Below, in pieces: positions 57,502 to 62,908 of a stretch of DNA of 64,000 nucleotides. Location of the stretch: NCBI GenBank assembly GCA_963829525.1, contig CAWHIJ010000003.1:128001-192000 (forward strand), read 5' to 3'. The notes under the pieces are model-generated. The model was not told the origin of the DNA, ran no database searches, and was given only the letters and a program-made list of their open reading frames with translations. Every line of letters begins with the position of its first letter. The stretch's first letter is position 1. Origin of the DNA: an uncultured Actinomycetota bacterium. Lineage in GTDB: Bacteria; Actinomycetota; Actinomycetes; JAHEKZ01. A program made the position numbers and the translations under genes.

Positions 57502-57812
57502 ACGACGCACCAACACGACAAACCTCCAGGGGGTCTTCTCTGACGCGCGACAGCGCCCCCGACAGCCACGCGCGTGCAACGCTATTGCCCGAATCGTCCC
57601 AGGGCTAGCGGCCACCCTCGCGAATCGATGTGAATAATGTATCCACTGATCGGCCAGTCAGCCAGGTTACGGTCTGGCGACGATCAGTGGCGGCGCCGAC
57701 TCTGCTCGCTAGGCTCCACTGCACCGGATCGGCGGGCCCCTCGCCCGGGGTCAGCACCAACCGTCAGCGGCTGGGTCGCTCCACACCTAGCCGCGATCAA
57801 GCAGGAGGTTTC

Positions 57813-60005
57813 GTGCGCCCAGCGCTGGCCATCGGTCTGTTGATGACACTCGTCACCGGTCTCGTCGTCGCACGACGCGGCTTCATGATCGGACGACTTA
57901 TCGGTGTGGGCCAACCGCGCCCCAAAGGGAGCCTCCCCGACCCCCGTGAACTCGTGCAGGCAGAGACAGTCGAGGTGCTTGGTCAACGCAAGCTGCTGAA
58001 GTGGACCGTGCCTGGCTTTGCACACTTCTTCGCCTTCTGGGGCTTCATCGTCCTCGGCCTGACGATCCTCGAGGCCTATGGAGCACTTTTCGACCCAGAG
58101 TTCTCGATTCCCGTTCTCGACCAGTGGTCGTTCGTGGCGTTCATCGAGGACTTCTTCGCCGTCATGGTGCTTGTGGCTCTCGTCATCTTCACCGTGATTC
58201 GGATCAAGCAGAACCCGCACCGTGTCGGTCGTCTCTCGCGCTTCTACGGCTCGCACACGGGGGCGGCGTGGCTCGTCCTCTTCATGATCTTCAACGTCGT
58301 CTGGACGCTGCTGCTCTACCGCGGCGCGCAGATCAACTCTGGCAACTTCCCATACCCCGGCGGCGCTTTCGCATCGGAGATCGTCGCCGGCTGGCTCGAG
58401 CCACTCGGCGAAGTAGCCAATGAGCGGATCGAGACGGTCGCGATCCTGCTGCAGATCGGCGTGATCCTCGCATTCATGATCATCGTGGTCTACAGCAAGC
58501 ATCTGCACATCGCGCTGGCTCCACTGAACGTGGCTTTCTCGCGGCGCCCGAACGCGCTGGGTCCGATGCTGCCCATGTACTCCGGAGGACAGCCCATCGA
58601 CTTCGAGGACCCGGGCGAGGACGACATCTTTGGCCGCGGCAAGGTCGAGGACTTTACGTGGAAGGGGCTGCTCGACTTCTCCACCTGTACCGAATGCGGG
58701 AGATGCCAGTCCCAGTGCCCTGCCTGGAACACTGGCAAGCCGCTGTCGCCGAAGCTGCTCATCATGGCGCTGCGAGACAACGCCTTCGCCCAGGCGCCTT
58801 ATCTCATCAAGCAGAAACATCCTGACTACCTCGCGTCGACGGGTGGACCCGCTCCCGCTGTCCCGGTCGAGATCACGGAGTTTCCGCAGTCGGTGCAGGA
58901 CGCCGCCGCACGTCCGCTCGTGGGGCCGACGGAGTTCGACGAGGACGGTCATGGCATCGGCGGCGGCGTCATTGACCCAGACGTTCTCTGGTCGTGCACA
59001 ACGTGTGGCGCCTGCGTCGAGCAGTGCCCGGTCGACATTGAGCACGTCGACCACATCACCGACATGCGTCGATTCCAGGTGTTGATCGAGTCGGAGTTCC
59101 CAGCTGAGCTCGGCGGTCTCTTCAAGAACCTCGAGACCAAGGGCAACCCATGGGGGATGAACGCCTCATCACGTCTTGACTGGGCCGCCGACCTGCCGTT
59201 CGAGGTGAAGGTCGTCGACGGTCCGCTCGATGGTGACACGGAGTACCTCTTCTGGGTCGGCTGTGCCGGTGCGTTCGAGGACCGTGCGAAGAAGACGACG
59301 CAAGCCGTCGCCGAGCTGCTGCACATGGCGGGCGTGACGTTCGCCGTTCTCGGCGAAGGAGAGACCTGCAGTGGTGACACCGCTCGTCGTTCTGGCAACG
59401 AGTTCCTCTTCCAGATGTTGGCGCAGCAAAACGTCGAGACGCTCAACGAGATCGGCGCAAAGAAGGTCGTCGTCACCTGCGCACACTGCTTCAACACCTT
59501 GCGAAACGAGTACCCGCAAGTGGGTGGCCACTACGAGGTCGTACACCACACGCAGCTGCTCAACACACTCGTCCGTGATGGCAAGCTCACACCGGTCTCG
59601 TCGGTGAGCGAGCAGGTGACGTACCACGACCCGTGCTACCTCGGCCGGCACAACAAGGTCTACAGCCCTCCGCGCGACTTGATCGGCGCATCTGGCGCTG
59701 AACTGACCGAGATGCCGCGTAACTCCGAGCGGGGATTTTGCTGCGGCGCCGGTGGGGCCCGCATGTGGATGGAGGAGAAGATCGGCAAGCGGGTCAACAC
59801 CGAACGCACCGAAGAGGCGATCGCGACCGGCGCAAAGACCATCGCAGTCGGCTGCCCGTTCTGCCGGGTGATGCTGAGTGACGGCGTCGCCGAGGTGCAG
59901 TCAGACGTCGAGCGCGAGGAACAGGTGCAGGTGGTCGACGTCGCCCAGCTGCTGCTCAAGGCCGCCAAGAACGGGTCGGTCAGCCAGAGCAGTTCAACCC
60001 CATAG
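57813..60005 (+). CDS. Membrane-bound Fe-S oxidoreductase (FadF/heterodisulfide-reductase-related)
   Basis: N-terminal TMs, CTECGRCQSQCP, CTTCGACVEQCP, CCG domains (YHDPCYLGR, CCGAGG). GTG 57813 after AGGAGG. Confidence 0.9.
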   Translation: MRPALAIGLLMTLVTGLVVARRGFMIGRLIGVGQPRPKGSLPDPRELVQAETVEVLGQRKLLKWTVPGFAHFFAFWGFIVLGLTILEAYGALFDPEFSIPVLDQWSFVAFIEDFFAVMVLVALVIFTVIRIKQNPHRVGRLSRFYGSHTGAAWLVLFMIFNVVWTLLLYRGAQINSGNFPYPGGAFASEIVAGWLEPLGEVANERIETVAILLQIGVILAFMIIVVYSKHLHIALAPLNVAFSRRPNALGPMLPMYSGGQPIDFEDPGEDDIFGRGKVEDFTWKGLLDFSTCTECGRCQSQCPAWNTGKPLSPKLLIMALRDNAFAQAPYLIKQKHPDYLASTGGPAPAVPVEITEFPQSVQDAAARPLVGPTEFDEDGHGIGGGVIDPDVLWSCTTCGACVEQCPVDIEHVDHITDMRRFQVLIESEFPAELGGLFKNLETKGNPWGMNASSRLDWAADLPFEVKVVDGPLDGDTEYLFWVGCAGAFEDRAKKTTQAVAELLHMAGVTFAVLGEGETCSGDTARRSGNEFLFQMLAQQNVETLNEIGAKKVVVTCAHCFNTLRNEYPQVGGHYEVVHHTQLLNTLVRDGKLTPVSSVSEQVTYHDPCYLGRHNKVYSPPRDLIGASGAELTEMPRNSERGFCCGAGGARMWMEEKIGKRVNTERTEEAIATGAKTIAVGCPFCRVMLSDGVAEVQSDVEREEQVQVVDVAQLLLKAAKNGSVSQSSSTP

Positions 60006-60212
60006 AGCAACCCACCAAGCCCGCCCAGTGCACACTCAGCTGACGCCTCAGCAGACCGAGTGCGACGCTAAATGACGCTTGGATCCGAGACCTTGTGCCG
60101 TATCGTGGAATGAAATCCCCACGATTTGGAACACCGGTGCTCCGTGTGTTGCCATATGTCTTGTTCCTATGTACTACGCCGACGTAAGTCGGCCCTTCCC
60201 TAGAGGTGTGTT

Positions 60213-60356
60213 GTGAGTTCTGTCGTCGCCCCCGTCGAGCGTCTCGTCCAGCGTTTCCAGATATGGCGCTACGAGGAGCAGCACGTTGCCCGCTCGCGCA
60301 GTCAGCGCAACGCCACCGAGCGACTGCAGATCGCCAGGGCAAGCCACCTTCACTGA
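60213..60356 (+). CDS. 47-aa small protein A (IWRY/ERL motif; not in ORF track)
   Basis: GTG start after GAGGTG: MSSVVAPVERLVQRFQIWRYEEQHVARSRSQRNATERLQIARASHLH. Ungapped similarity to the next ORF. Confidence 0.65.
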   Translation: MSSVVAPVERLVQRFQIWRYEEQHVARSRSQRNATERLQIARASHLH

Positions 60357-60414
60357 GCATGGCCCCGAGGCCGGCTAGGTCTGTCACACTCGATTCACGC
60401 GAGGGGAGACGACC

Positions 60415-60585
60415 ATGGGTGGCATCACCAAGTCCGCCAAGGACCTGTGGACGCGACTGCTCATCTGGCGTTATCGAGCCGAGCAGGCTGAAGTCGCCCG
60501 ACAGGACAGTGACTCCGAGGAACGACTCCGGATGGCCGAGGAAGGCATCTTTCCTTACGGACGCCCGAACAGCGGCTCCGTGTAG
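60415..60585 (+). CDS. 56-aa small protein B (IWRY/ERL motif; not in ORF track)
   Basis: ATG after GAGGGGAG: MGGITKSAKDLWTRLLIWRYRAEQAEVARQDSDSEERLRMAEEGIFPYGRPNSGSV. Confidence 0.7.
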   Translation: MGGITKSAKDLWTRLLIWRYRAEQAEVARQDSDSEERLRMAEEGIFPYGRPNSGSV

Positions 60586-60597
60586 AGAACCCGTGCG

Positions 60598-61185
60598 TCA
60601 CGCCGTCGGCGGGATGTCCGTCCGATGGAAGTTCAAGAACGACTTGCTCGGCGTCGGGCCACGCTGGCCCTGGTAGCGCGAGCCGTACTTTGCCGAACCG
60701 TACGGGTGCTCAGCCGGTGAAGAAAGCCGGAAGAGGCAGAGCTGCCCGATCTTCATCCCGGGCCAGAGCTTGATGGGGAGCGTCGCGACGTTGCTCAGCT
60801 CGAGCGTGACGTGACCGCTGAAGCCGGGGTCGATGAAGCCGGCCGTCGAGTGCGTCAGAAGGCCGAGACGGCCGAGTGATGACTTGCCCTCCAGTCGTCC
60901 GGCAACGTCGTCGGGGAGGCTCACGACCTCGTAGGTCGACGCGAGAGCGAACTCTCCGGGGTGCAAGATGAACGGCTCATCGCCGTCGGGCTCGACCATG
61001 CGCGTGAGGTCGGGTTGCTCCTGTGCCGGGTCGATGTGCGGGTAACGGTGGTTCTCGAACACCCGGAAGTAGCGGTCGAGACGGACATCGACGCTGGATG
61101 GCTGGACCATCGCGGTGTCGAAGGGCTCGAGCTGGACGCGTCCAGCAGCGATCTCAGCCTGGATGTCACGGTCGGAGAGGAGCAC
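60598..61185 (-). CDS. dcd: dCTP deaminase
   Basis: [45 protein letters not shown]. Confidence 0.95.
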
Positions 61186-61275
61186 GCGGGGAGACTACTA
61201 GCCCGACAATGCCCCGTGGCCCGGGCGGGTCCAGGTGCGGCATAATCACAGGTGCTCTCCCTCGGGGAGAGCCGC

Positions 61276-61346
61276 GCGGGTGTAGTTCAATGGTAGAACA
61301 TCAGCTTCCCAAGCTGACAGTGCGAGTTCGATTCTCGTCACCCGCT
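61276..61346 (+). tRNA. tRNA-Gly (anticodon CCC), CCA not encoded
   Basis: Acceptor stem GCGGGTG/CACCCGC, D arm GTTC..GAAC, anticodon arm TCAGC-TTCCCAA-GCTGA, T loop GTTCGATTC. Confidence 0.95.
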
Positions 61347-61454
61347 CCCCTCCCTCGGTGGGGCCCCCTCCCGCCGCGATCACCCGTTAGGCCCAGCGCT
61401 GACGGCGGCACGGCGTCGATGCATAGGGGACTGAAAGAGGTGGCCGACTTCGTG

Positions 61455-62261
61455 ATGCGTACCCGCCTGGGCGCACTCGCCCTCGCTGCAGGAGCGATCG
61501 TCTCGATGGTCGCCGCCCCAGCAGCGTCCGTGATCGCCCCCAACCCAGTGCTTCCAACGGCCAACGCCAAGTGGGACTACCAAATCGGAAAGCCCTATAC
61601 CCCGCGCAAGGGCGTCACCGTGGTCTCGCGCGACCGTACCGAAGCGCCACTCGCCGGCGCGTACACGATGTGTTACGTCAACGCCTACCAAACTCAGCCG
61701 GACAGGGTGCGTTGGTGGAAGAACAACCACGACAACCTGCTGCTGAAGAAGCCTGGCGGCGGTTACGTCGTTGACAGCTATTGGGGCGAGGTTCTCTTTG
61801 ACATCGGAACTCCCGAGAAGCGAGACGCGCTCGCCAGCATTGTCAACGGCTGGATCACCCGGTGCGCAGATGACGGCTTTCAGGCAGTGGAGCCCGACAA
61901 TCTCGACTCGTGGACGCGGTCCAACCGGCTACTGACCCGCGATCAAGCCTTCGCCTTCGCAAAACTCCTGATCGACCACGCCCACTCCAACGGTCTCGCC
62001 ATCGGACAGAAGAACGCAGCCGGCCAGACAGCGCGCGGCAAAACCGCCGGCTTTGATTTTGCCGTTGCCGAGGAATGTGGGAGATACAAGGAGTGCAATG
62101 CCTACACCGCTGCTTACGGCGACCAGGTGTACGTCATCGAGTACCGACTTCAAGACTTCACTTACTCGTGCGAGCGCTGGGGTAGCGAGCTCTCGATCAT
62201 CCTGCGCGATCGCAACGTCACTGCTCCCGGCTCGAAGACCTACGTCTACAAGGCCTGTTGA
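61455..62261 (+). CDS. Secreted endo-alpha-1,4-polygalactosaminidase (GH114-like)
   Basis: Signal peptide, WDYQIG, CYVNAYQTQP, GFQAVEPDNLDS, IGQKN, FAVAEEC, VIEY. Confidence 0.85.
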   Translation: MRTRLGALALAAGAIVSMVAAPAASVIAPNPVLPTANAKWDYQIGKPYTPRKGVTVVSRDRTEAPLAGAYTMCYVNAYQTQPDRVRWWKNNHDNLLLKKPGGGYVVDSYWGEVLFDIGTPEKRDALASIVNGWITRCADDGFQAVEPDNLDSWTRSNRLLTRDQAFAFAKLLIDHAHSNGLAIGQKNAAGQTARGKTAGFDFAVAEECGRYKECNAYTAAYGDQVYVIEYRLQDFTYSCERWGSELSIILRDRNVTAPGSKTYVYKAC

Positions 62262-62908
62262 CGCGACACTCTCCGCGGGATCACCAACCACGCCCCGACG
62301 AGGAAGCAGAGCGCGCCCAACAGCGTCCCACCGTTAGACCATCTCGCGTTCAGCAGTTCGTTCGTGGACGGGACCACATAAGCGCCGACCGCGGATATGC
62401 CGAAGAAGATCGACCCGACCATGTTGAACGTGCTGATCGTCCACGAACGGTCGCGAGCGTGTCCGTGCCGATGACGTCGGACGTCCGGCATCAGCGCAAT
62501 GGCGCTGGAGACTAGGAAGAGAATCGAGCCAACGGCGTCCGGGCGCCAGATCACCTGGTTCTCGACCGCCTGTCGTCCCGATAGGTCAACCAAGGCGGCC
62601 AGCGTCGTGACGTTGAAGAAGATCGTGCCGATCCACTGGATCCAGGAACTGGTCCAGGCCGGCGCTCGGCTCAGCAGGGCCGCGGTTGTGCTGGCGGTCG
62701 GTCCCTCCGGTCCCGACCGCCAGGCCAGGCGCATCTGGATGCTGGACGCCGAGGTGAAGAAGATCGACCCGACGAAGAAGGTGAGCGCACCAACGACCGG
62801 AGACCAGCTGGTACTGAGGCTGAAGACCACGCCAACGGCGAAGCAAGCCGAGCCAATGACGAAGAGCCACCCCATCCAGGTGGTGGCGCGGAGAGAGGGC
62901 GTTGGCAC
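62246..62908 (-). CDS. YrhK-like membrane protein
   Basis: Repeated LFVIGSACF / FFVGSIFFT / VGSILFLVSS / LGALCFLVG helices. Start estimated. Confidence 0.65.
   Translation of the reverse strand: MPTPSLRATTWMGWLFVIGSACFAVGVVFSLSTSWSPVVGALTFFVGSIFFTSASSIQMRLAWRSGPEGPTASTTAALLSRAPAWTSSWIQWIGTIFFNVTTLAALVDLSGRQAVENQVIWRPDAVGSILFLVSSAIALMPDVRRHRHGHARDRSWTISTFNMVGSIFFGISAVGAYVVPSTNELLNARWSNGGTLLGALCFLVGAWLVIPRRVSRQQAL

Follow-up and report, generated by a model that had tools for sequence, protein, structure and literature searches.

A tandem pair of paralogous genes beside dcd probably encodes members of a lineage-restricted single-helix microprotein family in uncultured Actinomycetes

The DNA analysed here (the window) is a stretch of 64,000 nucleotides from an uncultured Actinomycetota bacterium (assembly GCA_963829525.1, contig CAWHIJ010000003.1, positions 128,001 to 192,000 of the forward strand; genome G000 in our numbering), and coordinates below are positions in this window. 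Close to its end, two short open reading frames (ORFs) lie in tandem on the plus strand between an Fe-S oxidoreductase gene and dcd, which encodes dCTP deaminase. ORF1 (60213-60356), the type A microprotein gene, starts with GTG, encodes 47 amino acids ending in ...ARASHLH and stops at TGA; an in-frame TAG (60201-60203) closes the frame upstream, and a Shine-Dalgarno sequence, GAGG (60203-60206), lies 6 nt 5' of the GTG. ORF2 (60415-60585), the type B gene, starts with ATG and encodes 56 amino acids, a predicted helix followed by a G-x-x-P-Y-G-x-P tail; its Shine-Dalgarno sequence, GGGGAG (60403-60408), is likewise 6 nt from the start codon. The two genes are separated by 58 nt in which a scan found no terminator-like sites, and they are probably co-transcribed. 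A preliminary description, made from the letters of the window, had reported both ORFs with their ribosome-binding sites, and they are present where it put them. It had also located them 'before dcd', which needs correction: dcd (60598-61185), a minus-strand gene, runs towards the pair and ends with its own stop codon 12 nt from that of ORF2, so the ORFs lie beyond the 3' end of dcd.

BLASTP aligned ORF1 and ORF2 without gaps from residue 1 over 41 columns, of which 12 are identical and 20 similar (E = 6e-7, a value for a single comparison). The shared residues are M1, L11, R14, I17, W18, R19, Y20, R29, E36, R37, L38 and A41; apart from M1, this is the list given in the preliminary description, which had also noted the gapless alignment. 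The best ungapped BLOSUM62 segment scored 58. Shuffled versions of ORF2 gave a mean of 20.7 (standard deviation 4.3, maximum 52), and none of 1000 reached 58. When the own genome (2.96 Mb, 65% G+C) was searched, each ORF matched itself and, weakly, the other ORF, and nothing else. ORFs of this size are frequent by chance, 56 of at least 25 amino acids overlapping positions 58500-62500 alone. The ORFs by themselves are therefore no proof of genes, and the case has to be made from conservation.

Whole-genome six-frame searches found ORF1-type orthologues in 10 of the 13 other genomes of the genus (67-91% identical) and ORF2-type orthologues in G006 (80%), G001 (51%), G004 (46%) and G011 (36%). 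Nine ORF1 orthologues of equal length were compared codon by codon, in 36 pairs. Variable columns at codon positions 1, 2 and 3 numbered 15, 12 and 34 of 47, and the ratio of nonsynonymous to synonymous substitution rates (dN/dS) was 0.08-0.54 over all 36 pairs, with a median of 0.27. The G+C fraction was 0.77-0.85 at third positions against 0.40-0.49 at second positions. The GTG start, with GAGGT preceding it, is retained in all 11 genomes aligned. ORF2 gave a dN/dS of 0.22 in the close pair G000/G006. Two long frames compete with ORF1 for the same DNA, one on the plus strand (60206-60676) and one antisense (59980-60387); both are unsupported, because their third positions fall on the less variable first or second positions of ORF1. 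Taken as comparative evidence, these data indicate that ORF1 and ORF2 are both protein-coding, and the codon-position pattern and dN/dS uphold the earlier proposal of paralogues under selection at the protein level. Stop-codon readthrough of type A was also considered, a search having run past the TGA, and was rejected: in all 9 SHLH-type orthologues conservation ends at the stop codon. Among 20 public sequencing runs listed as sharing sampled words, the best four are DNA runs from freshwater sediment metagenomes (0.53-0.83 of words), the source sample perhaps among them, and six metatranscriptome runs share small fractions only (0.04-0.19).

Starting from ORF1 alone, jackhmmer was run over six-frame ORFs of the loci retrieved; it picked up ORF2 together with 18 other distinct small proteins, and the core of the resulting 20-member alignment is gapless. 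Searching six-frame translations for homologues had been proposed in the preliminary description; the family was recovered in this way with its frames conserved. Two profiles were used, A1 (these 20 members) and A5 (a broader set of 48). Profile A1 matched ORF2 at E = 7e-24 and ORF1 at E = 1.5e-21 in the own genome. Since both sequences are rows of A1 these values are not independent, and the independent evidence for membership is the jackhmmer search from ORF1 alone together with the alignments. Both proteins share the features that define members, a length of 47-77 amino acids and a gapless helical core of about 45 residues. Genomes that have the family carry one to three copies, and several unrelated chromosomal sites are occupied.

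In the genome collection searched, the taxonomic family to which G000 belongs makes up its whole order. Profile A1 found a match in 17 of the 20 genomes of this family, or 16 of 19 when G000 is left out; by genus (g1 to g5) the counts were 13/13 in g1, 1/2 in g3, 1/1 in g4, 1/1 in g5 and 0/2 in g2. Among 381 other genomes sampled from the class, no match was found at E <= 0.001. Profile A5 gave matches in 21 genomes outside the family, all of them partial, at E 8e-4 to 0.01 and mostly within long open frames; inside the family its matches ranged from E 2e-9 to 9e-26, except for a second match in G017 at 3.8e-4. We read the outside matches as noise. G033 enters the comparison solely as one genome without a significant match. 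On these searches the microprotein family is confined to one uncultured Actinomycetes family/order, where restriction means that it was not found in the genomes searched, those of the class being a sample.

Protein collections gave the same size range. Against 1.84 billion representative proteins, profile A1 produced 32 matches at E <= 0.001, of which one was an unrelated 718-residue repeat protein and 31 were small proteins. All 31 are 47-77 amino acids long, which leaves no fused or domain form among them. In a collection clustered at 90% identity, 29 clusters matched, and where the source gives a name it is 'hypothetical protein'. Eight related records of metagenome-assembled genomes are labelled 'Actinomycetes bacterium', 'Candidatus Nanopelagicales bacterium' or 'uncultured Actinomycetota bacterium', and the lineage that carries the family appears to be uncultured.

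AlphaFold2, given the family alignment, modelled ORF1 as one continuous helix over residues 7-46 (predicted local distance difference test, pLDDT, 86) and ORF2 as a helix spanning residues 3-42 with a disordered tail of low confidence behind it (pLDDT 66). Column statistics were taken over the 48 members. The N-terminal third carries a hydrophobic stripe at positions 4, 8, 11, 12, 15 and 17. Conserved columns are R14 (38 of 48), I17 (38), R19 (42) and Y20 (Y in 36 and W in 9; Y, W or F in all 48), followed further along by R32 (41), A34 (35), E36 (43), R37 (39) and L, V or I at position 38 (39). Position 44 is G in 37 members and S in 11. ORF1 has all of these family-conserved residues, with S at position 44, and ORF2 has all except R32 and A34, which are S32 and S34. 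The motif proposed in the preliminary description holds as a family signature for R14, I17, R19, Y/W20, E36 and R37 and fails for L11, W18, R29 and A41, which are not conserved. R32, A34 and G44 were invisible in the two-sequence comparison, since serine occupies positions 32 and 34 in ORF2 and position 44 in ORF1.

The stretch between the conserved residues is rich in E, R, Q and A and contains opposite-charge i/i+4 pairs (R32/E36 and D33/R37). Type A proteins end in an invariant S-H-L-H, and most other members carry a short Gly/Pro-rich C-terminal tail of the form G-[IVG]-x-x-[YGP]-G-x-P-P. Column hydropathy revealed no membrane-spanning hydrophobic run, the hydrophobic columns alternating with conserved Arg, Glu and Gln, and no signal peptide was evident on reading the sequences. 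A complex prediction for ORF1 with ORF2 scored 0.00 in both runs; it gave no answer and counts neither for nor against binding.

Known families were searched with the pair and with the 48 members. Pfam returned no family for ORF1 or ORF2 at E <= 10, and NCBIfam none. Over the 48 members Pfam gave no DUF1127 match at E <= 1, and its best recurrent family appeared in 2 of the 48 at E = 0.044. NCBIfam, PHROGs and PADLOC on the 48 members, and a profile search of PDB sequences, gave scattered single matches only, those in PADLOC being two at E about 0.007-0.009. Foldseek found no PDB match to the ORF1 model at E <= 10, as expected for a lone helix. In the ESM Atlas the best feature scores of ORF2, 0.79-0.81 to 'hypothetical protein' clusters, are below the usable range, and ORF1 gave nothing usable. 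Rfam returned for 59800-61400 only a tRNA, plus one match at E = 0.34 to a vertebrate long non-coding RNA model. Full-text searching of the literature yielded general small-protein papers only; a sequence family is not searchable by words. The earlier statement that the pair matches no recognised family is thus borne out for Pfam (DUF1127 included), NCBIfam, PHROGs, PADLOC and PDB. The homologues, the conserved frames, the lack of a described family and the single helices modelled for both proteins agree with the earlier proposal of a new helical microprotein family. That the genes are 'hidden' is true in part only, identical or similar predicted proteins being already in public sets as 'hypothetical protein'; they have not escaped gene callers.

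Several known systems invite comparison. DUF1127 peptides are likewise small, Arg-rich and predicted to be helical, but ORF1 and ORF2 have no HMM match to that family and lack its DIG motif, an absence already remarked on in the preliminary description. Charged single alpha-helix (SAH) segments of the ER/K type resemble the family at residues about 21-43, which are rich in E, R, Q and A, have i/i+4 charge pairs and form an uninterrupted predicted helix. Unlike SAH segments, the helix here is the whole protein, with a hydrophobic N-terminal stripe and position-specific conservation that the linker-like SAH lack. The best PDB profile match was to exendin-4 (PDB 5niq): the type B helix end and its NGG-S-P-Y-G-P-P-P resemble ...WLKNGGPSSGAPPPS of the 'Trp-cage' tail, although the match is not significant (E = 0.87), the position of the caged Trp is not conserved and the tail is of low confidence in AlphaFold2. 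At the level of the motif, the type B tail (for example 60544-60582) reads (E/N)-G-G-S-P-Y-G-P-P-P, again a non-significant resemblance to the exendin-4 Trp-cage tail NGGPSSGAPPPS. The review 'Small proteins in Gram-positive bacteria' outlines a class of cytosolic microproteins that bind a larger protein (PMC10730256). The present proteins are like this class in having fewer than 60 residues, a stand-alone gene, no room for an enzymatic domain, a helical structure and a conserved charged/aromatic face; they differ in having no sequence or profile similarity to described members, in being restricted to one lineage and in having up to three paralogues per genome. 'A catalog of small proteins from the global microbiome' (PMC11364881) deals with small-ORF families derived from metagenomes, and the present family is like the entries of such catalogues in its metagenomic origin, its unassigned function and its deposition as 'hypothetical protein'.

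In a maximum-likelihood tree of the 48 members many forks are unresolved, because the alignment has few columns. The type A clade, defined by the SHLH ending, has 11 rows and support of 100/94. It lies in a wider dcd-adjacent clade (98/87) that also takes in longer, tail-bearing forms from G004 and G012. A third clade, type C, has support of 100/98, and type B sequences group loosely. On this tree types A and B are old, separate paralogous lineages. The dcd-adjacent members in G004 (L007:1802-1966) and G012 (L009:1495-1659) have 55 amino acids and a B/C-like tail, G-[VI]-x-x-x-G-x-R-P-T, so the 47-residue SHLH form looks derived and truncated.

The position of type A is stable. All 11 genomes have it convergent with dcd, and in 9 of 11 it is preceded by the Fe-S oxidoreductase gene (CCG and 4Fe-4S domains), which in the window occupies 57630-60005 on the plus strand. 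Type B follows type A in G000, G006 and G001, and in G004 and G011 its place is immediately 5' of the type A promoter block described below. In 7 of the 12 genomes with an ORF1-type locus (G003, G005, G007, G008, G010, G012 and G013) type A has no type B neighbour, and its stop codon is 29-181 nt from that of dcd. Five of these, G005, G007, G010, G012 and G013 (completeness 69-99%), have type A as the sole family member in the assembly. By this comparison type A is the stable member, and type B is faster-evolving and movable or dispensable. The varied gene orders and copy numbers make the tandem pair one of several arrangements, not an obligate unit.

Neighbouring genes differ among the subtypes, and no partner gene is conserved beside the family members. 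In G002, G003 and G008, type C is flanked by an EamA transporter gene on one side and, on the other, by a polyprenyl synthetase gene that follows a nuoN-like gene; no type C copy was detectable in the own genome with the family profile. The type C proteins (loci L054, L060 and L061 of these three genomes) have a signature of their own, ...W-R-D-R-E-R-R-A-A-x-Q-R...E-R-D-E-M-T-R-K-G.... Other members adjoin unrelated genes, among them those for tautomerase, a phosphate-binding-protein-like product, SDR, MFS/ThrE, RidA/LysR and peptidase C69/thioredoxin-like proteins.

Type A is preceded by a conserved 66-bp block (60093-60158, plus strand), present in 11 of 11 aligned genomes with CGATTTGGAAC invariant, which is likely to be a promoter/operator. 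Within it are an inverted repeat with imperfect 15-nt arms (60094-60108 / 60119-60133) and several GGAAC/GTTCC half-sites, and at the nucleotide level it is better conserved than ORF1, an 11-mer being invariant in 11 genomes. The block is unique in the genome (nhmmer profile E = 9e-20, next best E = 0.4; exact motifs likewise occur only here), and among the loci collected it was found in 12 genomes, each time 5' of a type A gene. Judged by eye, the block matches no sigma-70, extracytoplasmic function (ECF), sigma-54-like or GlnR-like consensus; for the ECF pattern GGAAC ... GTT the spacing is about 3 nt too short.

Between the block and ORF1, the 5' untranslated region (UTR) contains a hairpin, GCCGAC-GTAA-GTCGGC (60178-60193, plus strand), seen both as an inverted repeat and in the RNAalifold consensus. 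One of its pairs has compensatory changes in four sequences (AU, UA, GU, GC), and 92.7% of cells are paired, against 31-58% with slid partners; folded as a single sequence, it is unexceptional (z -0.58). It is followed by a short helix of four pairs (60194-60206, plus strand) between CCUU (60194-60197) and the Shine-Dalgarno GAGG (60203-60206). These pairs are kept in 97.7% of cells with one-sided changes only, which is weak support; the helix might control translation. We infer from these features that type A may have a dedicated, probably regulated promoter/operator and a structured 5' UTR.

A dispersed 32-nt repeat unit, consensus about GCYCGYCGAGTGCACACCTGGTTGACGCCCAAG, is present at 60027-60078 of the window (G000:C3:188027-188078) as two degenerate copies between the stop codon of the Fe-S oxidoreductase gene and the conserved block. 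Further copies lie elsewhere in contig C3, outside the window. Across the genome, roughly 20 sites carry one to three units head to tail, and a loose pattern allowing one mismatch gave 37 matches; similar copies are found in the same gap of G003, G006, G007, G008 and G013, and downstream of type A in G012. It looks like a repetitive extragenic palindrome (REP)-like intergenic repeat or a repeated binding site. On the other side of the pair, the gene directly upstream of dcd is a tRNA gene (61276-61346; Rfam tRNA, 72.9 bits), encoded on the other strand. A long plus-strand ORF (61023-62261), coding for a GH114-family glycoside hydrolase, runs across this tRNA, so the true start of the GH114 gene must be downstream of it.

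We consider it probable that ORF1 and ORF2 are genuine coding genes, old paralogues within a lineage-restricted family of single-helix proteins of 47-77 residues. The same locus could in principle be a conserved non-coding element (a small RNA, a long 3' UTR or a regulatory region) in which the ORFs are chance frames of a 65% G+C genome. The 56 chance ORFs in 4 kb and the nucleotide conservation of the upstream block, which outdoes that of ORF1, are what such an element might produce, and translation is argued entirely from evolution. It would, however, leave without explanation the dominance of third-position variation in the ORF1 frame, a dN/dS below 1 and the failure of the two alternative frames, whose third positions coincide with the less variable ones of ORF1. 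Protein-level homologues are moreover found at unrelated loci with different flanking DNA, and Rfam has nothing in the region but the tRNA. We regard a non-coding element as extremely unlikely. That the pair are divergent members of a described small-protein family, DUF1127 or another Arg-rich DUF, is barely credible: the proteins are small, Arg-rich and helical, a resemblance noted as loose in the preliminary description, but the profile searches contradict it (no Pfam family at E <= 10 for the pair, no DUF1127 at E <= 1 in 48 members, scattered single matches in NCBIfam, PHROGs, PADLOC and the PDB profile search, nothing usable in the ESM Atlas). A membrane-active peptide, a type I toxin-like peptide or a secreted peptide might be suspected from the small size and from the amphipathic, aromatic and Arg-rich N-terminal segment LWTRLLIWRY. 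Such a role is very unlikely, given a sequence without an evident signal peptide and without any hydrophobic stretch of membrane length, such as a type I toxin or membrane microprotein would have; neither Rfam nor the neighbourhoods revealed an antitoxin-like partner or antisense RNA family, and PADLOC gave just the two single matches among 48 members.

The preliminary description had suggested that the two proteins form a heterodimer. If this were obligate, the tandem pair would be the functional unit, as its adjacency on one strand (58 nt, no terminator found between) and the recurrence of the A-then-B order in G006 and G001 would suggest; both proteins are also modelled as single amphipathic helices, which may need a packing partner. 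The gene distribution makes an obligate heterodimer quite unlikely. It is not required, because ORF1-type genes often have no ORF2-type neighbour (7 of 12 loci); five genomes have a single family member, type B in G004 and G011 is upstream of the type A block instead of in an operon behind A, and A and B are old separate lineages. A role in cis, with the peptide secondary, would make the locus a leader or regulatory upstream ORF (uORF), or the source of a convergent antisense transcript tuning dcd. Type A is convergent with dcd in all 11 genomes, and no terminator-like site was found in the 12 nt between the ORF2 and dcd stop codons. Actinomycete terminators often lack a U-tract, however, and the scan may miss one of this kind. 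There is no same-strand downstream gene for a leader or attenuator uORF to lead into, the distance to dcd varies from 16 to 181 nt in genomes without type B between, and conservation of the amino acids reaches paralogues at loci that have no dcd. We hold a cis role to be highly improbable.

Several observations weigh against the reading of ORF1 and ORF2 as a family of coding, partly regulated genes. Their translation is deduced from evolution, and type B pairs beyond G000/G006 are near saturation, with dN/dS up to 0.94. Because the genomes were assembled from metagenomes, with a completeness of only 69-76% for some, single-copy counts may be underestimates. Confidence in the ORF2 model is modest (pLDDT 66), and a lone predicted helix of 40 residues would say little about function. 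Gene neighbourhoods yield no consistent functional hint. A consensus scan for sigma-70 promoters and intrinsic terminators found 0 sites, and single-sequence folding of the block and the 5' UTR is unremarkable (z -0.58 and -2.13); the lack of such sites, together with the ordinary folding energies, makes the regulatory reading weak.

As coding genes of a single-helix family, ORF1 and ORF2 could act as follows. Each protein alone would be a soluble cytoplasmic helix that binds a macromolecule, protein or nucleic acid, or that self-associates. Binding would use the conserved face R14-I17-R19-Y/W20 ... R32-(D33)-A34-E36-R37-L38. Type A would be switched on under particular conditions through the operator-like block and perhaps also through the Shine-Dalgarno-masking helix. 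We put forward this mechanism as a whole (a lone partner-binding helix, a conserved face and conditional expression of type A) tentatively, as plausible rather than probable. A bolder version, which we consider unlikely, would make the proteins lineage-specific single-helix regulators that dock on a core machine (ribosome, RNA polymerase or respiratory complex, for example), with type A as the inducible master copy, under its unique operator and Shine-Dalgarno-masking 5' UTR, and types B and C as interchangeable paralogues that retune the same target. Two chromosomal contexts of the family, the Fe-S oxidoreductase gene and the nuoN/polyprenyl synthase region, relate to respiration or quinones.

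The lineage is uncultured and the proteins are already public as hypothetical, so the immediate impact of these findings is modest. They illustrate that comparative genomics alone can separate real genes of 47-56 codons from the chance ORFs of a high-G+C genome. The genome-unique conserved block and the hairpin of type A provide a handle on regulation in this lineage, and if the docking-regulator version of the mechanism were true, an uncultured actinomycete order would have yielded a new type of microprotein regulator. The family is a lineage-restricted addition to the broad class of bacterial microproteins, and it brings a well-supported set of proteins, validated by their evolution, into a small proteome that in uncultured Actinomycetes is largely uncharacterised.

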